A DNA stretch of 64,000 bases, taken from an uncultured bacterium. Its GTDB lineage: Bacteria > Patescibacteriota > Minisyncoccia > Phycocordibacterales > UBA2100. The position numbers and the translations under genes were made by a program. This document shows positions 5,197-52,608 of the stretch, in pieces. Each line of letters starts with the position of its first letter. Positions within the stretch are counted from its first letter, which is position 1. Under the pieces are notes generated by a model. The model worked only from the letters and a program-made list of their open reading frames with translations, did no database searches and had not been told where the DNA came from. The stretch spans positions 40,697 to 104,696 of the forward strand of contig CAIJXH010000004.1 of NCBI GenBank assembly GCA_903824595.1. The letters are read 5' to 3'.

Positions 5197-6245
5197 TGGA
5201 AAAAGATTTTGATCCCAATGGAATCGGGCAAGAAAACGCAGGCATATTTGGATTACCATTCTCACCGAGCGAAGCGCAATTGGTACTTATCCCCGCACCG
5301 TGGGGCGTGACAGTTTCATATGGTGGAGGAACGCAAGAAGGACCGCGGGCAATCTATAAAGCGTCGCCGCAAATAGATTTCTACCACCCGAGCTATGGAT
5401 CAGATTCATGGAAACTCGGTATCGCGATGCTGCCACTACACGAGTGGGACGACGCATACCAGAAAGGACTCGCGCTGCGCACGCGCGCCGAGGCATACAT
5501 TGAAGAGCTCGGTCGCGGCACACCGAGCGATATGGAAGATGCGCTCGCCTCGATCAACACAGGATGTGGAGAATTCCACGCGCGCATAGAACGCACCGCT
5601 ATTGATCTCCTCAACCAAAACAAACTCGTCGGAATTGTGGGAGGCGATCACTCCACATCACTCGGACTCATGCGGGCACTCGCCAAGAAGCACGGCGACT
5701 TCGGCATTCTTCAAATCGACGCACACTGCGATCTGCGCGACGCGTACGAAGGATTCACGTACTCACATGCCTCGATTATGCACAACGCCCTGAAAATGAA
5801 CGGGGTGCAAAAACTCACACAGGTCGGTATTCGTGATTATTCTATCGGCGAGTACGAAACCATCGCCACATCCAACGGCCGCATCCACACGTTCTTCGAC
5901 ACCGATCTCACACAGCGGCAGTTCCGCGGAGAATCCTGGCACACGATCGTGGAGAGTATCGTGGAGACACTGCCGCAAAACGTATACGTCAGTTTCGACA
6001 TCGACGGACTTGATCCTGCGCTTTGTCCGCACACCGGCACTCCTGTACCGGGCGGATTGCAATTCCATGAAGCACTGTATCTTATCCGAGCTGTCGCGGA
6101 GTCTGGAAAACACATGATTGGCTTTGATGTGAACGAAGTGTCCCCGTCGCACGCAAACGAGTGGGACGCCAACGTCGGCATGCGCATCCTCTGGAACATT
6201 GCGCTCTGGGCGGCAAAGTCCAATGGACTCAACCCGCTTTCATGA
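5196..6245 (+). CDS. speB: Agmatinase (ureohydrolase/arginase family).
   Basis: Mn-binding motifs GGDHSTSLG, DAHCDLRD, SFDIDGLDP. Start at MEKDF overlaps the nspC stop (ATGA). Confidence 0.8.
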   Translation: MEKDFDPNGIGQENAGIFGLPFSPSEAQLVLIPAPWGVTVSYGGGTQEGPRAIYKASPQIDFYHPSYGSDSWKLGIAMLPLHEWDDAYQKGLALRTRAEAYIEELGRGTPSDMEDALASINTGCGEFHARIERTAIDLLNQNKLVGIVGGDHSTSLGLMRALAKKHGDFGILQIDAHCDLRDAYEGFTYSHASIMHNALKMNGVQKLTQVGIRDYSIGEYETIATSNGRIHTFFDTDLTQRQFRGESWHTIVESIVETLPQNVYVSFDIDGLDPALCPHTGTPVPGGLQFHEALYLIRAVAESGKHMIGFDVNEVSPSHANEWDANVGMRILWNIALWAAKSNGLNPLS

Positions 6246-6503: not shown

Positions 6504-8477
6504 CTACCGCACCGTTACCAATGCCGTCGCGCTTCGCGTGTTGCCGCCGAGCGTCGCGCATTGAATGGCAAACGTGGTCGATGTGGCAAGAGCAGGGGTG
6601 ATCACCGTCCCGTTGACCGCAGTATTGCTTGCGTTGGAGGCAGTGAAGCTGGGCAGATCGGGACTCGACACCACGCACGAGCTCATCCCCGACGTAACCC
6701 ACCCGAGCGTCGATTTGTCGCCCGCGACGATCGCTGCTGGATTTGCCACAAATATCAGTGACACGCGCGCCACCTGCACCGAACACTGCGCCGTACCCGT
6801 GAGCCCACTGTCTGTACACGTGAGACCAAACGTCGCCGTGTTGCTGCCTGCGAGAGGATTGGGCGCTGCCACCGTAACAGGACTCGAGCTTGCCGCCGAA
6901 AACCCTCCGCCCACCGCCGTCCCCGACGAACACGAATACGATACCGTAACAGGCGCGCCCACATCCGCCACGCTTGGCGCACACGCAATAGATGCCGTCG
7001 GGGTCGTTTTGGCTGCCACCGTTGCCGACGCAGCACCAGGCACACACTGCCATCCCGATATGCACGATCCGCTATACGTCGCACGCCACGCTCCACCTGT
7101 GCACGAGCTACTATCGGGCTGCGAGGGCTGATTACCACACGACGAAGCGGAAGGATAGGGAGAATACCCATACCCGCTATTGGCATTCTTGTTGCCAGAA
7201 AAGAGCCCCGATACCATGCTTCCTATCGCATATATGCCCGCCCCCTGAATGATGCCGTTCATCAACCCTCCGCTCTCACCACCCAAAAAGCCCGAGTAGT
7301 TGCCCTTCCCAAAGTCACCGCCAGGTCCTGCACCTATCTTGATGCAATCTTTGCCAATGAGCGAGTAGCCGTCGAGCAACGTACACGCGCCTGATTGCTT
7401 GTTCCTTTTCATACACGGCACATCGGGTGTACACGCTCCACCCGTGGCACCTTCAGCAATACTCTTTCTTTCTCCATCACCATTCAACTTTGGAGGAGGT
7501 TGATTGGGATTAGCTGGAGCAGCTGGATCAGGTGAGGCTGGAGATTGAGCGGGCTTCGGTTGAATGTTTTCTGCCTGCGTGCCATTGTCTGCTTGTGTAT
7601 CACCAAGGTAAGTCTCGCGTACGTAAGATCCCTGAGGGGTCCTGCTGTTAGGATTGGTGCAGACTCCCTCTCCATTATTAGCATGATCTTTGCACACAAG
7701 TTGTGCCGGCGGAACAACGGGAGCCGGTGGACGCAAGAAATCTCCACATGTTCCTGCTGTGCGACTGGAGATTCGACTAACCGGTTCTTTTCCGTCTCCT
7801 GTGTAACGGCCTTCTTTATTATAATCTGGAATATTTGTAAACTCACACACCGTGCTAGCTCCTGAGTTGTCCTTCACCAACAATCTGCATTCTGTTGCGT
7901 TAATGTCTGCACAATCGTTGTCTTGTTTCGCACGTTCACATCTAGCTTCAAGAATATCTTTTGAATTTGAAGAAGGTGGTGTGCAGGAAACGTTTCCAAA
8001 ACTACAATAATTATTCTGATATTTTTTCCACTCCCCCCCCGTAAATACACCTCTGGAGTTCTCGCTTTCGTAGGTAACGTTGCCTAGAGTACACCTTTCG
8101 TTCCGAGAATTAGCGCTCCATTCAGGAATTAGGTTCTGATTTCCTTTTACATAATAGAAACATTGTGTCGATCTGGCTTTTGCAATAATACAATTGTTCA
8201 TTGTATCAGGTGTGTCACTTGCGAGACACTCAGTAAATTTCTGCTTGTAAATAACTCGCACCTCTCCAGGAAAACAATTCTTGATTGTAATTTTATCGTT
8301 GTTTGATATCGACGCGGCCTCTGCGGCCGCGGTCTGCGACGCGCGGTTGAGCTGTGCAAACTGCGCAGTGGCGGTGGCGCCGAGCATGCCGACAAGCATG
8401 ATACCTCCCAAGATCGAAGACCCGCGCGCTACCCGAGATGAACACCGATACATCTCGTCATGATCGCGCGAAAGCAC
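6504..8477 (-). CDS. Large secreted/membrane-anchored Gly/Ser/Thr/Cys-rich low-complexity protein (hypothetical).
   Basis: 657-aa ORF with N-terminal hydrophobic segment and many Cys. Its C-terminal ~80 aa share a module with ORF 33387..34841 (see findings). Confidence 0.5.
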   Translation of the reverse strand: MLSRDHDEMYRCSSRVARGSSILGGIMLVGMLGATATAQFAQLNRASQTAAAEAASISNNDKITIKNCFPGEVRVIYKQKFTECLASDTPDTMNNCIIAKARSTQCFYYVKGNQNLIPEWSANSRNERCTLGNVTYESENSRGVFTGGEWKKYQNNYCSFGNVSCTPPSSNSKDILEARCERAKQDNDCADINATECRLLVKDNSGASTVCEFTNIPDYNKEGRYTGDGKEPVSRISSRTAGTCGDFLRPPAPVVPPAQLVCKDHANNGEGVCTNPNSRTPQGSYVRETYLGDTQADNGTQAENIQPKPAQSPASPDPAAPANPNQPPPKLNGDGERKSIAEGATGGACTPDVPCMKRNKQSGACTLLDGYSLIGKDCIKIGAGPGGDFGKGNYSGFLGGESGGLMNGIIQGAGIYAIGSMVSGLFSGNKNANSGYGYSPYPSASSCGNQPSQPDSSSCTGGAWRATYSGSCISGWQCVPGAASATVAAKTTPTASIACAPSVADVGAPVTVSYSCSSGTAVGGGFSAASSSPVTVAAPNPLAGSNTATFGLTCTDSGLTGTAQCSVQVARVSLIFVANPAAIVAGDKSTLGWVTSGMSSCVVSSPDLPSFTASNASNTAVNGTVITPALATSTTFAIQCATLGGNTRSATALVTVR

Positions 8478-36041: not shown

Positions 36042-36134
36042 AGTTACCCATTGAAACTAAATACACTATGCCACGTATGCAATCATCTTGCAATCTTCCC
36101 CGCATCCATCCTAGAGGCGACACCTCTAGGATTT

Positions 36135-39012: not shown

Positions 39013-39045
39013 GCGAGCAGTGTAGCGCAAAAAAGAAGCGGGCGC

Positions 39046-39080
39046 CTTCGGCGCCCGCTTCTTTTTTATATCATTCAAAA
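39046..39080. terminator. Strong bidirectional intrinsic terminator between rpsG and tsaE.
   Basis: GAAGCGGGCGCC-ttcg-GCGCCCGCTTC with A-run upstream and TTTTTTAT downstream. Confidence 0.6.
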
Positions 39081-39979: not shown

Positions 39980-40257
39980 CATGATTGACAATGAAAAATC
40001 CCCATGAGGGTACGCGGAGCATACTATCAATCCATATTTCACGCAAGCTTCTCGCCAGACGGATCCTAAAAAGCTAGTGCACGTCGGTTATGCACGTGCG
40101 CGCGTAGGGAGAGCAAAGCTTGTAGTGCTGTCCTGTACTTTCGTAACGATATGCACTCATGTCGGCTGGAGGCAGCGCAACATCGGACATTTGAATATCT
40201 GAAGCAACAATACTCCAATCTGCAGCAAGTTTAGATAATGTCGTCCCAAAAAATCGT

Positions 40258-40276
40258 CCGCAGGTTTAACCTGCGG
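40258..40276. repeat. REP-like palindrome copy 1 (CCGCAGGTTTAACCTGCGG).
   Basis: Exact 19-nt hairpin-forming repeat, 13 nt upstream of the HuH transposase start. Confidence 0.8.
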
Positions 40277-40289
40277 AATTGGTGTTAGA

Positions 40290-40985
40290 ATGGATAGCAT
40301 GTCTACCCGACCACCCATGGCGATTGGCGAATGGTACCACTGCTACACTCGCGGGGTCGACAAGCGAAAAGTATTTGAATCGCAGGAAGATTATGATCGT
40401 TTTCTGGTGCATCTTTACGTCGCCAATGGAACGCGAAATATTCGCGTATCCGATATGCGCGACACGCGACTTAAGAGGGTTTTGGAGGATGAATCGCTCG
40501 ATCGAGGTCATCCGATTGTTGAAATTGGAGCGTACTCGCTCATGCCAACCCATGTTCATTTTCTGTTGCGGGAAATCAGAGACGGCGGTATTGCGCTTTT
40601 CATGCAAAAGACCTTCACCGGGTATACGATGTATTTCAATAACAAGAACGAGCGCACTGGGGCGCTTTTTTCCGGCACGTTCAAATCGAAACACGTAAAC
40701 GAAGATCGGTATCTGAAACAAGTCATTCCCTACATACTCCTCAACCCCGTGGAATTGTTCTATCCCGACTGGAAGAACGGCATCGGCGATATTGATTCCG
40801 TGGAGAAAAAATTGCTCGCGTACCCCTACTCAAGTTTGCAAGAGTTTCAGAGTGTTAGCATCGAACGCCCGCATAAAAAAATCGTGAACGGCTCCTTTGA
40901 AATGTATTACGAGCAACTCCCCACACTCTCACAAATGCTCAGTGACGCGCAAGAGTATTATCGGGAACGCCGTCCGCAGGTTTAA
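40290..40985 (+). mobile_element. IS200/IS605-family HuH (Y1) transposase of the REP-associated (RAYT, TnpA_REP) type.
   Basis: EWYHCYTRG...YSLMPTHVHFLL (HuH motif) and C-terminal Tyr-containing helix. 231 aa. Flanked by identical REP palindromes; its stop codon TAA is the loop of REP copy 2. Confidence 0.75.
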
Positions 40986-40993
40986 CCTGCGGA
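40975..40993. repeat. REP-like palindrome copy 2.
   Basis: Exact repeat; encodes the transposase C-terminus RPQV* (stop lies in the hairpin loop). Confidence 0.8.
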
Positions 40994-41071
40994 AGCTGAA
41001 AACTCTCCATGTTTTACTATCTATCATAAAACTACGACCTGGAACTTTCGTTCCAGGTCGCCTCCAATCTC

Positions 41072-41674
41072 TCAATCAGAGAGAGGAGCTAGTTTCCTCA
41101 ACACATCGAGGTCGTCTTCAATATCCCATCCGTGTTCACGCAGCCCTTCCGCGATTCGGATGACCAACTCGTGATCCATCAATTCAGACAACCCCGAGAA
41201 CGACAGAATGATCCACTCGGATATTCGACCCTCACCATGACGCGCGCACACGGTAATTGCACCGGCATATTTTTCAGTCGCCCGATCCCGCGATTGACAG
41301 GATGCTCGATGTTGCTCATTGAAAAACCCTCCATATAGGCGCAGAGCTTTTTCCGTCGCAAATCGGATATATTTTTCCATTTTGCCCCGGTTTACTCCAT
41401 CAAAACAACATGCGAACAAGGGCTCTGGGGTAGTGATCGAACCTCGATTGCATGGCACTGGGGTCACATGGAATACCTGCAAACAACCACCCTTACCTTG
41501 TTCTGTCTCGTTTCCTGCGACCAATTTAACCAGAGCTTGCTCGGCAACGTCTCGTACAAGACGAGACCGTTCTTCAGTGAGGCGCATATCCATCTCCTCC
41601 AAATCACAAAATGCCCAACCTCCACAGCTGGAGATTTCTCCAGCAACAATATCGCATAACGGCACATGGGTCAA
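41072..41674 (-). CDS. Hypothetical protein located between REP copies 2 and 3.
   Basis: 200-aa ORF, no recognisable motif. Confidence 0.35.
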   Translation of the reverse strand: MTHVPLCDIVAGEISSCGGWAFCDLEEMDMRLTEERSRLVRDVAEQALVKLVAGNETEQGKGGCLQVFHVTPVPCNRGSITTPEPLFACCFDGVNRGKMEKYIRFATEKALRLYGGFFNEQHRASCQSRDRATEKYAGAITVCARHGEGRISEWIILSFSGLSELMDHELVIRIAEGLREHGWDIEDDLDVLRKLAPLSD

Positions 41675-41687
41675 AACTACGAATCCT

Positions 41688-41706
41688 TTTCCCGCAGGTT
41701 TAACCT
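41688..41706. repeat. REP-like palindrome copy 3.
   Basis: Exact repeat. Confidence 0.8.
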
Positions 41707-41721
41707 GCGGATTTTGTTCAA

Positions 41722-41841
41722 CTTACTACCACTCAATCTCCTTCTGCCCGTGCTCTTTCAGGTACGCATTCGCCTTTGAAAAGGGTTTGGATCCGAAGAA
41801 ACCGGAGTGGGCGGAAAAGGGCGACGGGTGCGGCGATTCGA
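41722..41841 (-). pseudogene. Diverged duplicate of the ung 3' end (fragment encoding ...[39 protein letters not shown]).
   Basis: ~65 nt almost identical (ggtttggatccgaagaaaccggagtgggcggaaaagggcgacgg(g/a)tgcggcgattcgatgacga) to 43362..43425 inside ung, then ~55 nt of diverged but alignable sequence including a stop codon. Confidence 0.65.
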
Positions 41842-41855
41842 TGACGAAAGGAGTG

Positions 41856-43196
41856 TCAGTAGATCGGGACACAATTCGAGTCAAATTGAGATAAGTCGAC
41901 AGTCTGATTATTCCAGATCTTCAAGTCACCAGATCTCGGAAGACAGCAGTTACGACGCATAGTATTCGATGGATTGCTCTCCACGCGTGCCCGCTCTCGA
42001 CAACTTACTTGCCACTGGATGGAACCGACAAAATGGGCTAAGCAGTAATGCTCACCAGCTTGCCAATCGGACCAGGTAGCGTTTGCAAGATTATTTTCTT
42101 TAAATATACAGAGTGTTGGATCATTATTCTGAGTTGCTTTAAATGTTCGATTGCGAGAGACACATCTTATATAGTACCTCTGTGCATTCTTCATATTCAC
42201 CTCCATATCCTCGTTATCCATGTTATCAGCATCAATAATCGATACCGCAGGGTTGTTTTGAGGTACATCCTGTACTTGATCCCACCCATCTTTCATTATT
42301 ATCGTCGCCGATGGGATAACTTCGAGACCCGTCACGCCAGGATAAAGCGCTTCACAATTTGACTGCCCCGATTGTGCAGCAGCCTGTGATTTTGAATCCT
42401 TACAATTGAGATTATATTGATTGTCTCGCAGCGTACAGTCTTTTAGATTTTGTTCATACTGCGGATCCGCCTGATCAAGACACTGGGTCAACTGCCTGCG
42501 CCCTTCCTGAACCACCACGCCCTCCGTATCTCCACCCGAAAGATAGCATAGTGATGGCAGATGTATCTTCGTAGCAATGGCAAATATGAGATCTCGTCCC
42601 CCCATTACAGGTGCGAAAGGCCCCACGATCACTACGATCATGAGTGCGGTCAGGACGGACGCGTATTGTGTGCGTCGTATCGGATACTGCGCGCCACGTA
42701 TCACTCTCGATACTAGTATCGAAAGACCCGCAAAAAGCGCTATCAGCAAGCAAGCGGCCATGTTTCTAAAAACAAATACTACTTCACCGGCAGCAGCCAT
42801 TGCTGCAATGAGAGGAAATGGAAGTCTAGTGCCGCTGCCAAGACGTACATCTACATCTGCGAGGAGGAGGAATAAACATGAAGACAATACCAGCACCAAT
42901 AGAGTTAAGAAAACTGAAACCAATCCCCCAACTGAATAAACAAGTGCATCCGATACCGGACGGGAAGTATCAGGAGATATAGAGCGTGCGACGAGGAATG
43001 GTCCGCAGAGCGCCAATATGACTAAACCAAGATAATAAACTTCCTCCCCTATTACCCGATATAAGACAAGGTGTGCGATTGTATACACTGGCAAGAAAAC
43101 AAAGATAAAAAAGAAAGTTAGCGCGCTGAAAAAAAGTATGTGTCTATATTTTTTTTTCATCAGCACAAATATAGCACGGGTGCATGCACGAGACAA
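41856..43196 (-). CDS. Polytopic membrane protein with Cys-rich C-terminal extracellular domain (hypothetical). Cargo gene between the ung 3' fragment and ung.
   Basis: 446-aa ORF, ~6 N-terminal TM helices, C-terminal domain with ~10 Cys. Confidence 0.45.
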
Positions 43197-43252
43197 ACAT
43201 GACTCCCCTGTCGCCGCGCGACGATGAATCCCGCTTTCGTCCGCAGGTCGTC

Positions 43253-43271
43253 CGCAGGTTTAACCTGCGGT
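43253..43271. repeat. REP-like palindrome copy 4 (preceded by a partial tandem half-copy gtccgcaggtc).
   Basis: Exact repeat, 30 nt downstream of the ung stop. Confidence 0.8.
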
Positions 43272-43300
43272 TTTTGATCCGATACTTGAATGTGCAAAAG

Positions 43301-43966
43301 CTACCACTCTATGGGCGCTTTCCCGTGTTTGCCGAGGTCGGTATTTGCTCTGGAGAACGGTTTGGATCCGAAGAAACCGGAGTGGGCGGAAAAGGGCGAC
43401 GGATGCGGCGATTCGATGACGAGATGGCGCGCGCGGTCGATGTGCGCGCCTTTGTGCCTCGCGTAGTTGCCCCAGAGGATGAAGACGATATGTTCGCGCT
43501 CTTCGGCAAGTTTTTGTATCGCCGCGTCGGTGAATTGTTCCCAGCCTTTGCCTTGGTGCGAGCAGGCTACGCCGGCTCGCACCGTGAGCGTCGCATTCAG
43601 AAGCAGCACACCCTGCTTCGCCCAGCGCGACAGATCGGTATCGCGACTCACCGGATGCCCGAGGTCGGATGCTAGTTCCTTGAATATATTTTGAAGCGAT
43701 GGTGGCGTCGCTACACCCGAACGCACCGCAAAACACAGCCCGTTCGCCTGTCCTTCTCCATGATACGGATCTTGCCCGAGAATCACCACTTTCACCTCAT
43801 CAAACGGACACTCATCAAATGCACGGAACACCTGCTTGGGCGGCGGAAACACTCGCGCACTCTTGTATTCCTCACGCACGAAACTCGCAAGTGATTGAAA
43901 GTACGACTGTTCGAACTCTGCCGCCAGTCTCTCTCTCCATCCTCCACTTATTTTTACTTCTACCAT
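43301..43966 (-). CDS. ung: Uracil-DNA glycosylase, family 1.
   Basis: GQDPYH (water-activating loop), [11 protein letters not shown] (Leu-intercalation/His motif). Start at [10 protein letters not shown]. Confidence 0.85.
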
Positions 43967-44031
43967 CGTATCATCGTACGACACTCGACAAATTTTGCCA
44001 TGCCAATACACCAATGCTACACTCCCCGTAT

Positions 44032-44622
44032 ATGAACACCACAGCACAAATGCTCGTGCCGATGGTCGTCGAGAAGACGTCTATGGGCGAACGGGCGTAC
44101 GATATTTATTCGCGTTTGCTCAAGGAGCGCATTGTCTTTCTCGGCGGCCCCATCGACAGCGACGTCGCCAACCTCGTCGTTGCACAGCTCTTATTCCTCG
44201 CCAGCGAAGACCCTAAGAAAGATATTTCGTTCTACATAAATTCCCCGGGCGGACACGTCTCGGCAGGACTTGCCATTCTCGACACTATGAATCACATCCA
44301 GCCCGCAGTTTCTACGGTATGCGTTGGCATTGCCGCTTCTATGGGTGCCGTGTTGCTTTCTGCGGGCGAAAAAGGTAAGCGATTTGTGTTGCCCAATGCC
44401 GAAGTGATGATCCACCAACCATCGGGCGGCGCGGAAGGACAGGCGACCGATATCGAAATAACCGCCAAGCACATCATCGCCACACGCGCCCGTCTCAACA
44501 AAATCCTTGCAAAAAACACATCCCAGAAACTCGACAAGATAGAACAAGACGTTGATCGCGACTTTTTCATGACTGCCGAAGAGGCAGTTACATACGGCAT
44601 TGTGGATAGCGTGCTCGTATAA
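44032..44622 (+). CDS. clpP: ATP-dependent Clp protease proteolytic subunit.
   Basis: [20 protein letters not shown], catalytic Ser in GIAASMGA, His in MIHQP. Confidence 0.9.
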
Positions 44623-49166: not shown

Positions 49167-49286
49167 GTGCCTATCCCCTCACGACATGTTCGACGAGGTC
49201 TTTGCAGCGCGACGGCGCGAAACAGAGGGATTTTTCAGCAGAAAAATCCCGACCTCGGAGAATCGTGTCGTGAGGGGATAGGCACC
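49167..49286. mobile_element. MITE-like palindromic element copy 1 (120 bp; 21-bp terminal inverted repeats GTGCCTATCCCCTCACGACA; flanked by TATTACGAa / TATTACGAc).
   Basis: Near-perfect long hairpin with nested stems. A second near-identical copy at 52489..52608 has a different flanking duplication. Confidence 0.7.
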
Positions 49287-52488: not shown

Positions 52489-52608
52489 GTGCCTATACCC
52501 TCACGACATGTTCGACGAGGTCTTTGCAGCGCGACGGCGCGAAACAGAGGGATTTTTCAGCAGAAAAATCCCGACCTCGGAGAATCGTGTCGTGAGGGTA
52601 TAGGCACC
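52489..52608. mobile_element. MITE-like palindromic element copy 2 (flanked by a perfect 9-bp duplication TGCGTATCA). An adjacent partial third copy lies at ~52623..52666.
   Basis: Identical to copy 1 except one compensatory pair of substitutions in the terminal stem (C->A on the left arm, G->T on the right arm). Confidence 0.7.

Follow-up and report, generated by a model that had tools for sequence, protein, structure and literature searches.

This report concerns a locus in a 64-kb window, which is the whole stretch of DNA analysed, from the genome of an uncultured Patescibacteria bacterium. At positions 40257-43270 a gene resembling those of the transposases associated with repetitive extragenic palindromes (REP), known as RAYT or TnpA-REP, lies between two copies of a short perfect hairpin. 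Two further copies of the hairpin mark the edges of strain-specific genes in this small-genome organism. The gene and the hairpins are arranged as follows.

40257-40277, + strand: hairpin copy 1, T-CCGCAGGT-tta-ACCTGCGG-A, with a 9-bp stem, 13-22 nt 5' of the start of the RAYT-like gene
40283-40291, + strand: presumptive extended -10 box, TGT-TAGAAT (TAGAAT at 40286-40291), 7 nt before the ATG at 40299
40290-40985, + strand: RAYT-like Y1 HUH gene, 231 aa as the longest open reading frame (ORF), with the HuH motif at H88-V-H90 and the tyrosine Y148 in YILLNP
40973-40993, + strand: hairpin copy 2, whose left arm forms the codons for the final PQV of the protein; the TAA stop is made of loop nucleotides 2-3 plus the base that opens the right arm
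41692-41710, + strand: hairpin copy 3, with an 8-bp stem, 15 nt from the stop of a 3' fragment of ung and within a duplicated block
43238-43270, + strand: left-arm half-site CGTCCGCAGGT (43238-43248), then hairpin copy 4 (43252-43270)

The exact 19-mer at the core of the hairpin, CCGCAGGTTTAACCTGCGG, occurs four times on the + strand of the window (40258-40276, 40974-40992, 41692-41710 and 43252-43270), and the chance expectation from shuffled sequence is 0.00 matches. A fifth copy was absent from the 64 kb even when 3 mismatches were allowed. Read on the - strand, the 19-mer has one mismatch, which is the central loop base. A preliminary description made from the letters of this DNA had listed four palindromes in the same orientation, and all were found, with its coordinates for copies 2-4 off by 1-4 nt. 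That they fold into a hairpin also holds, but the proposed 7-bp stem with a TTTAA loop is better drawn with 8 bp in the stem and three nucleotides, TTA, in the loop, the stem reaching 9 bp in copies 1 and 2 through an outer T...A pair. Folded as single-stranded DNA the copies are predicted to gain -9.5 to -11.1 kcal/mol (z -4.3 to -7). Successive copies are spaced 716, 718 and 1560 nt apart and the intervals are filled with ORFs. This spacing and coding content rule out a CRISPR array, in which 24-48-nt repeats alternate with non-coding spacers of similar size, in agreement with the preliminary description.

Copies 1-4 are flanked by CGT, CGT, TTC and CGT, respectively. Because CGT precedes 3/4 copies, membership in the CGTC-tagged REP superfamily was considered. 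Those REPs have an unpaired 5' CGTC tag, a stem that opens with A-T pairs, a 4-5-nt loop and a CCA tail (PMC3733652). Membership was rejected on structure: the C is the first paired base here, there is no A-T foot, the loop has 3 nt, the CCA tail is missing, and other genomes lack the CGT. Their hairpins are flanked by AA, TT or CT, mostly extending the stem. Neither a conserved 5' GT[AG]G tetranucleotide nor any other guide motif was found beside the hairpin, in the window or beside the copies of other genomes. The preliminary description had contemplated a guide sequence of the IS200/IS605 kind; a guide tetranucleotide (GTAG) is not conserved.

Ahead of copy 4, CGTCCGCAGGT is directly duplicated (43238-43248 and again 43249-43259), and the tandem half-site reported earlier is real. 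Partial direct duplications of the left arm, ending in ...AGGT(T) immediately 5' of a full hairpin, were seen in five independent genomes (window 43238-43259; L008 ~5528-5557; L014 ~1429-1460; L080 ~64-96; L087 ~6690-6740, where L numbers designate loci). Nicking and rejoining at the stem-loop junction could produce such duplications, as could replication slippage. A consistent polarity relative to the loop was sought by eye and not found.

The protein carries the residues expected of a RAYT. Its start is likely the ATG at 40299, giving 228 aa (MSTRPPMAIGEWYHC...), because the family N-terminus reads M-A/S-T-R-x-P...GEWYHC. The motif HVHFLL occupies residues 88-93 of the 231-aa ORF. Among 30 homologues (53-75% identity) H88, H90, Y148 and N152 are invariant and P153 is retained in at least 90%, together defining a Y---NP motif. 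Y---NP is the signature of class 2, the RAYT type, and Y---Q that of IS200 transposases (Quentin et al., PMC6006769). The motif YPYSS in the C-terminal tail is also kept (Y178, Y180, S181 and S182 at 90% or more); the protein measures 228-231 aa including a 75-aa tail. The preliminary description had entertained a decayed insertion sequence without a catalytic tyrosine. Since Y148 is present, and invariant in the 30 homologues, the gene is not a degenerate remnant.

Pfam Y1_Tnp matches the 231-aa protein at 23.8 bits, just above its cut-off of 23. An AlphaFold2 model of the protein has a predicted local distance difference test score (pLDDT) of 90.6. The top match of the model among PDB structures by Foldseek is 4er8_A, E. 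coli TnpA-REP on a REP hairpin (E 1.7e-5; target-normalised template modelling score 0.64), followed by ISDra2 and then IS608 TnpA. A search of 5.8 billion proteins returned 490 relatives of ~225 aa, mostly from Patescibacteria (Kaiserbacteria, Adlerbacteria), several of which bear the Joint Genome Institute (JGI) name 'REP element-mobilizing transposase RayT'. With a profile as the query, 757 clusters (50% identity) were recovered from 1.84 billion representatives at E<=1e-30. When plasmids were searched with tblastn, only distant Y1 transposases of 26-44% identity were recovered, which is uninformative on subclass. By its motifs and modelled fold the ORF is predicted to encode a class-2 Y1 HUH protein of the RAYT type. 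The earlier claim of a HuH Y1 ORF bracketed by copies 1 and 2 is borne out by the invariant histidines and tyrosine and by the TnpA-REP fold. The IS200-type label then attached to it gives way to a RAYT-like one, given the Y---NP motif and a single-copy gene at a fixed locus.

The relation between gene and hairpin was examined in 80 metagenome loci encoding relatives of 40-56% identity, 76 of them with complete genes. At about 60 of the 76, one 19-nt hairpin core (<=2 mismatches) is present at both ends of the gene, 683-796 nt apart, with the upstream copy in either loop orientation. Of the 76 genes, 63% have a perfect stem of 8 bp or more between -45 and +75 nt relative to the stop, compared with 3% of random 120-nt windows from the same contigs. 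When 55 distinct hairpins were aligned, 88.9% of cells were paired, compared with 62.8% after shuffling, and 12/12 stem pairs showed double (compensatory) changes. At the apex three pairs, AGG/CCT, hardly vary, and the loop is closed by T-A or C-G. The sequence of the hairpin follows the lineage of the protein. These observations suggest that the 19-nt palindrome is the cognate hairpin of the RAYT-like enzyme, a claim that we hold as part of the overall interpretation below and at the same strength.

In the window the ORF ends CCG CAG GTT TAA inside hairpin copy 2, as the preliminary description had stated of its RPQV terminus and stop codon. The C-termini of 120 homologues include PQV (24), PEV (21), PKV (7) and TEV (6). 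The pattern x-[Q/E/K]-V-stop spells N-AGG-TT-TAA, and some homologues end in VKP, which corresponds to the hairpin with a flipped loop. Overlap of stop codon and hairpin therefore appears to be a family trait. Six loci also carry the cognate hairpin in frame within the RAYT-like gene (L130:6173, L110:775, L120:6152, L109:315, L129:6462 and L098:6535), in 4/6 cases in the variable region 5' of the HuH motif (e.g. ...QSSRQGPTLPEVL...). In the window gene an unrelated perfect palindrome, ACGCGAAataTTCGCGT, with a 7-bp stem and a 3-nt loop, occupies 40431-40447 (codons ~48-53), close to where the other homologues carry these insertions. It may be there by chance.

The 5' end of the gene is equally compact. 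At most related loci 11-30 nt separate the end of the upstream hairpin from the ATG, and a -10-like box (TATACT, TATAAT or TAGAAT) lies ~7 nt before that ATG. In the window the TGT-TAGAAT box was not called by a strict promoter consensus scan. A -10-like box 7 nt before the ATG suggests that the RAYT mRNA is leaderless, or nearly so, and would therefore place the loop of hairpin 1 at the -35 position. Overlap of the presumptive promoter with hairpin 1 may point to autoregulation through hairpin binding. The unit of ~735 bp would then consist of a hairpin, a leaderless gene and a second hairpin.

The 19-mer is also dispersed in other genomes. Among 185,579 species genomes, 66 loci contain the exact 19-mer; about half are single, terminator-like matches in unrelated phyla and the remainder are from Patescibacteria. 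None of the 66 comes from the genome of the window. Three Patescibacteria metagenome-assembled genomes (MAGs) carry it on separate contigs, with at least 9 copies in Adlerbacteria CAIRHB01, 7 in CAINVT01 and 9 in JAUSIO01. Most of these copies are intergenic and near gene ends. The stem is extended in a manner specific to each genome (AA...TT, T...A or CT...AG), the pattern expected of within-genome amplification of a master copy. At L004 a 57%-identical homologue sits between two copies of the 19-mer 719 nt apart and ends ...PQV* in the identical 19-mer.

Several other palindromes were encountered during these scans. The MAGs rich in the 19-mer contain further perfect hairpins with an AGGY-NNN-RCCT apex and other stems, for example CCGCCGAGGTtaaACCTCGGCGG, found twice (L004, L005, L032 and L048 in CAIRHB01; L019 and L062 in CAINVT01; L003 and L014 in JAUSIO01), suggesting that several hairpin sub-families coexist in one genome. 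In the window a perfect palindrome with a 10-bp stem, ATCCTAGAGGcgacaCCTCTAGGAT, occupies 36108-36132, 3 nt beyond the end of polA. Its AGG...CCT apex and 5-nt loop, cgaca, resemble the cognate hairpins of the distant members L094, L133 and L140. This palindrome may belong to a second RAYT lineage as a solo hairpin, or may be just a terminator. The exact 19-mer was also found in Ferruginibacter (Bacteroidota), 3.8 kb from a distant Y1 homologue of 29% identity (E 1.7e-8; L007, 2091-2498 and 6299-6317), which is probably a coincidence.

Could the palindromes be mainly transcription terminators, insulators or mRNA-stabilising stem-loops, with the Y1 gene nearby only by accident? The dispersed copies do sit near gene ends, a simple terminator consensus, in which a T-run follows the stem, is satisfied by copy 1 on the - strand and by copies 3 and 4 on the + strand, and such secondary roles are known for REPs (PMC3733652, PMC3479197). 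However, a T-run is missing from copy 2, and in copies 3 and 4 it is not on the coding strand of the adjacent genes but on the other one. Roughly 80% of related loci have the hairpin also 5' of the gene, in either orientation and at a fixed spacing, and some homologues have it in frame inside the gene. A hairpin whose sequence follows the protein lineage is likewise not what an incidental association predicts. We regard this explanation as very improbable.

The evidence instead favours reading 40257-43270 as a REPtron-like locus whose protein belongs to a large clade of class-2 Y1 HUH proteins (RAYT/TnpA-REP type) found mostly in Patescibacteria. To this reading we assign a probability of about 0.75. 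The catalytic residues, the fold, the hairpin-gene-hairpin layout and the dispersal of the 19-mer in other Patescibacteria genomes agree with the REP/RAYT-like system proposed in the preliminary description. Several observations weigh on the other side. The NCBIfam equivalog REP_Tyr_transpos scores 26.5, well short of its cut-off of 80, and searches of PDB chains by sequence, with the protein and with the family profile, gave nothing significant. The hairpin alignment was built by choosing the best hairpin near each stop codon, so pairing is partly by construction, and the covariation fits a DNA or an RNA hairpin alike. Independent support for a cognate hairpin comes from the second copy at a fixed distance and from the random-window control. 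Two of the three many-copy MAGs have no RAYT gene within the 8-kb loci around their copies, and only L004 has the gene beside the hairpins. The ~7-9 exact copies per MAG are far below the number of classical REPs. Finally, the four copies of the window all lie within 3 kb, and one duplication explains two of them.

The anatomy of the sequence, the fold, the family-wide architecture, the covariation and the dispersal in other genomes are shown by the analysis; we infer the binding and cleavage of single-stranded DNA, the promoter overlap and the route by which the cargo arrived. By analogy with E. coli TnpA-REP and IS608 TnpA, the RAYT-like protein would bind the hairpin folded on single-stranded DNA, such as the lagging-strand template. 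It would cleave near the hairpin through Y148 with the HuH-bound metal, and the strands would then be rejoined. Solo hairpins could in this way be seeded at intergenic sites, and rearrangement or insertion could be promoted at hairpins already present. In the window the interval between the gene and ung would have been expanded by two low-GC ORFan segments, the first of which, orf200, has hairpins 2 and 3 as its exact limits. The second, orf434, would have brought along a hairpin and a ung 3' end of its own when recombination took place in a 62-nt identical stretch of ung.

The RAYT-like gene behaves as a resident, single-copy gene and not as an active IS200-type element. For each of two homologues, P0078 (18 contigs) and P0076 (17 contigs), a single context was seen across many samples. 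Identical proteins always found in one context fit a domesticated, resident single-copy gene. Six assemblies of the window population share an identical layout at 99.7-100% identity, and no structural polymorphism of the island was seen in the five other than that of the window. Over longer times the unit does relocate or transfer, as judged from three diverged units in one metagenome (L080, L085 and L087), which are 83-88% identical, have unrelated flanks and lose homology at the hairpins.

Those three units also speak for the view that hairpin-gene-hairpin is an autonomous IS200-like element, transposing through a single-stranded circle and leaving solo hairpins as excision footprints or using them as preferred targets. 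The compactness of the unit is IS200-like as well (~715-740 bp, with promoter and stop inside or adjoining the terminal hairpins), and L091 has two paralogues flanked by the same hairpin. Against it, the identical proteins P0078 and P0076 remain in one context on 17-18 contigs from many samples, and identical multi-copy units were not seen. The tyrosine motif is the class 2 Y---NP of RAYTs and not the IS200 Y---Q, the protein has ~225 aa rather than ~150 (PMC6006769), the ends of the unit share one perfect hairpin instead of being distinct left and right ends, and TnpA-REP outranks IS608 and ISDra2 as the fold match. An autonomous element of this kind is therefore unlikely.

Beyond the gene, the REPtron-like locus extends through two ORFans to ung, all on the opposite strand.

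41034-41061, - strand: terminator-like hairpin with an 11-12-bp stem, unrelated to the 19-mer, just 3' of orf200
41072-41674, - strand: orf200, an ORFan of 200 aa as the longest ORF (171-173 aa in public gene calls), filling the 718-bp segment between hairpins 2 and 3
41726-41847, - strand: orphan 3' fragment of ung, its last ~40 codons, matching 43301-43422
41856-43160, - strand: orf434, an ORFan and predicted membrane protein of 434 aa (446 aa from an upstream TTG), with no family match
43301-43966, - strand: intact ung (uracil-DNA glycosylase), with the longest ORF running to 44047; hairpin copy 4 is 30 nt past its stop

Among 5.8 billion proteins orf200 and orf434 matched only themselves, and Pfam and NCBIfam returned nothing for either. 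The island at 40.2-43.2 kb has a GC content of 0.45-0.50, 5-10 points lower than its flanks (0.52-0.59). The ung duplication beside the palindromes, claimed earlier, is real, and its sequence is informative. Positions 41786-41847 of the fragment are 98% identical to intact ung, 41726-41785 are only 62% identical yet code for a plausible Ung C-terminus, and homology ends at 41848. The fragment is a mosaic, the two copies of a 'hairpin + ung 3' end' block deriving from different alleles. Copies 3 and 4 lie in this one duplicated block and are therefore not independent insertions. The earlier statement that the REPs delimit cargo genes remains a fair description of the layout. Most simply, the orf434 segment would have come in when recombination occurred in the 62-nt identical ung stretch, carrying an ung end and a hairpin of its own.

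Two lineages therefore share a hairpin immediately beyond ung. At L113, which encodes a 45%-identical homologue, RAYT, hairpin and ung have the same convergent arrangement as in the window. Together these suggest an ancestral order rpsL / hairpin-RAYT-hairpin / ung, later expanded at the hairpin.

Some features of the surrounding sequence were recorded as well. Opposite ung, public gene calls list a 163-aa ORF and a 307-aa extended ClpP and not ung itself (window 43184-44622; L149:3485-4923). The gene appears to have been missed or overridden in the public annotations of this population, because it scores 312 bits against its NCBIfam equivalog. An Rfam scan of 38-46 kb gave only sub-threshold matches, all on the unrelated rpsG terminator, a perfect palindrome with an 18-bp stem and A6/T6 flanks downstream of rpsG (39029-39067) that looks like a bidirectional terminator. 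Two identical perfect palindromes of 24 nt, GGGATTTTTCagcaGAAAAATCCC, lie 3.3 kb apart (49227-49250 and 52549-52572) and are unrelated to the 19-mer.

Hairpins often mark the edges of strain-variable DNA at other loci too. L091:2707-6008 has six hairpins of one family in 3.3 kb, between a RAYT, a pair of ParE-toxin modules and a further Y1 paralogue, which has diverged. L079:4371-9488 is related to it and has part of the array in common, with a different RAYT, a different hairpin family upstream, and a 3-kb gene for a 977-aa RCC1-repeat protein that starts at a hairpin. At L068:1232-1297 the last 19 codons and the stop of rpsG (ribosomal protein S7) directly follow the 3' hairpin of the RAYT gene, and the remainder of rpsG is not upstream. 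L055 has a 1.5-kb ORFan segment between two hairpins in the same orientation and no RAYT nearby. Among the loci compared here, no hairpin-bounded segment was found in two different contexts.

Such arrays raise the idea of an integron-like platform for gene capture in Patescibacteria. Segments of one gene each, be they ORFans, genes for membrane or surface proteins, modules with a ParE toxin or even 3' fragments of genes, would be inserted, excised or swapped at resident hairpins near the nuclease gene, by HUH single-strand chemistry and with no tyrosine recombinase. The three successive hairpin-bounded segments of the window, the last two of them carrying low-GC ORFans, fit this idea. So do the ParE modules of the L091 array and the RCC1-repeat gene, beginning at a hairpin, by which the related L079 differs, as well as the ORFan segment of L055 and the gene 3' fragments that adjoin hairpins in L068 (rpsG) and in the window (ung). 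Most related loci, however, have two flanking hairpins only, no segment recurs in a second array or context, and all assemblies of the window population have one layout, in which no segment varies by presence or absence. Recombination within ung homology accounts better for the orf434 segment, and clusters of REPs beside tnpA-REP are known as REPtrons without a cassette function (PMC3333891). We therefore consider a capture platform improbable and retain the REPtron-like interpretation.

On that interpretation the gene and its hairpins are a little-described branch of the known RAYT system and not a new kind of system. To our knowledge, nearly all characterised REP/RAYT systems are from Proteobacteria, Cyanobacteria and Bacteroidetes. 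A literature search found no paper on REP/RAYT systems in the Candidate Phyla Radiation, and automatic pipelines already tag some members of the clade 'RayT'. The anatomy is unusually clean and reduced to essentials, with a perfect hairpin that lacks a tag and keeps its apex invariant, copies at the putative promoter and at the stop, and extensive natural covariation. It offers a good model for asking how hairpin recognition by a Y1 enzyme can dispense with a guide tetranucleotide, and whether Y1 enzymes help to shape the variable parts of very small genomes. Should the segments between hairpins prove able to move, they would open a new path for gene flux where classical mobile elements are few.

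Of the known systems compared, REPtrons are what the locus most resembles. Like integron attC arrays, it has short genes, in this clade ORFans and toxin-antitoxin genes, separated by a folded palindromic site near a recombinase gene. Integrons use the tyrosine recombinase IntI and imperfect attC sites of 57-141 nt, and the likeness is organisational only. With the IS200/IS605 elements IS608 and ISDra2 it shares a Y1 HUH protein, compactness, subterminal hairpins on one strand and, presumably, single-strand DNA chemistry. Those elements have Y---Q, ~150 aa, distinct imperfect ends with guides, multiple identical copies and often tnpB, none of which was seen here. The protein has YILLNP and 228-231 aa, and the only units seen in different contexts within a metagenome are diverged (83-88%).

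Among the class-2 proteins, comparison of length and motifs suggests that the protein most resembles TnpA-Y1 subclass 2.1 (Bertels Group 1 RAYTs; PMC6006769, PMC5581495). Members of that subclass have ~225-238 aa, an NH[V]H-type HuH, Y[IV]xLNP, an SS motif in the tail, and flanking 16-mers present about a dozen times per replicon. Unlike the present clade, they have no REP-like structures reported beside the gene, some have terminal inverted repeats, and the tail is often a helix-turn-helix. In subclass 2.4 the cognate palindrome is sometimes in frame inside tnpA (PMC6006769), as it is here in L098, L109, L110, L120, L129 and L130. Untagged atypical structures have been reported for subclasses 2.6 and 3 (PMC6006769).

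The REPtrons of Stenotrophomonas maltophilia and Marinomonas MWYL1 likewise combine perfect-palindrome REPs with a co-evolved TnpA-REP (PMC8266576). They keep a GTAG that aids the choice of cleavage site, whereas none is conserved here. E. coli TnpA-REP (RayT/YafM; PDB 4ER8; PMC3333891, PMC3479197) shares the Y1 HUH fold and the Y---NP motif at only ~11% sequence identity. E. coli REPs are imperfect and bulged, 30-40 nt long, require a 5' GTAG and number in the hundreds as pairs in bacterial interspersed mosaic elements (BIMEs). In contrast, the hairpins described here have a perfect 8-13-bp stem and a 3-nt loop, carry no tag, occur as single units and reach roughly ten exact copies per genome where they could be counted. 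As in the E. coli REPtron, a single-copy gene stands between cognate palindromes, with extra copies clustered on one side and others dispersed between genes, but in this clade the hairpin itself overlaps the stop codon and, as proposed above, the promoter.

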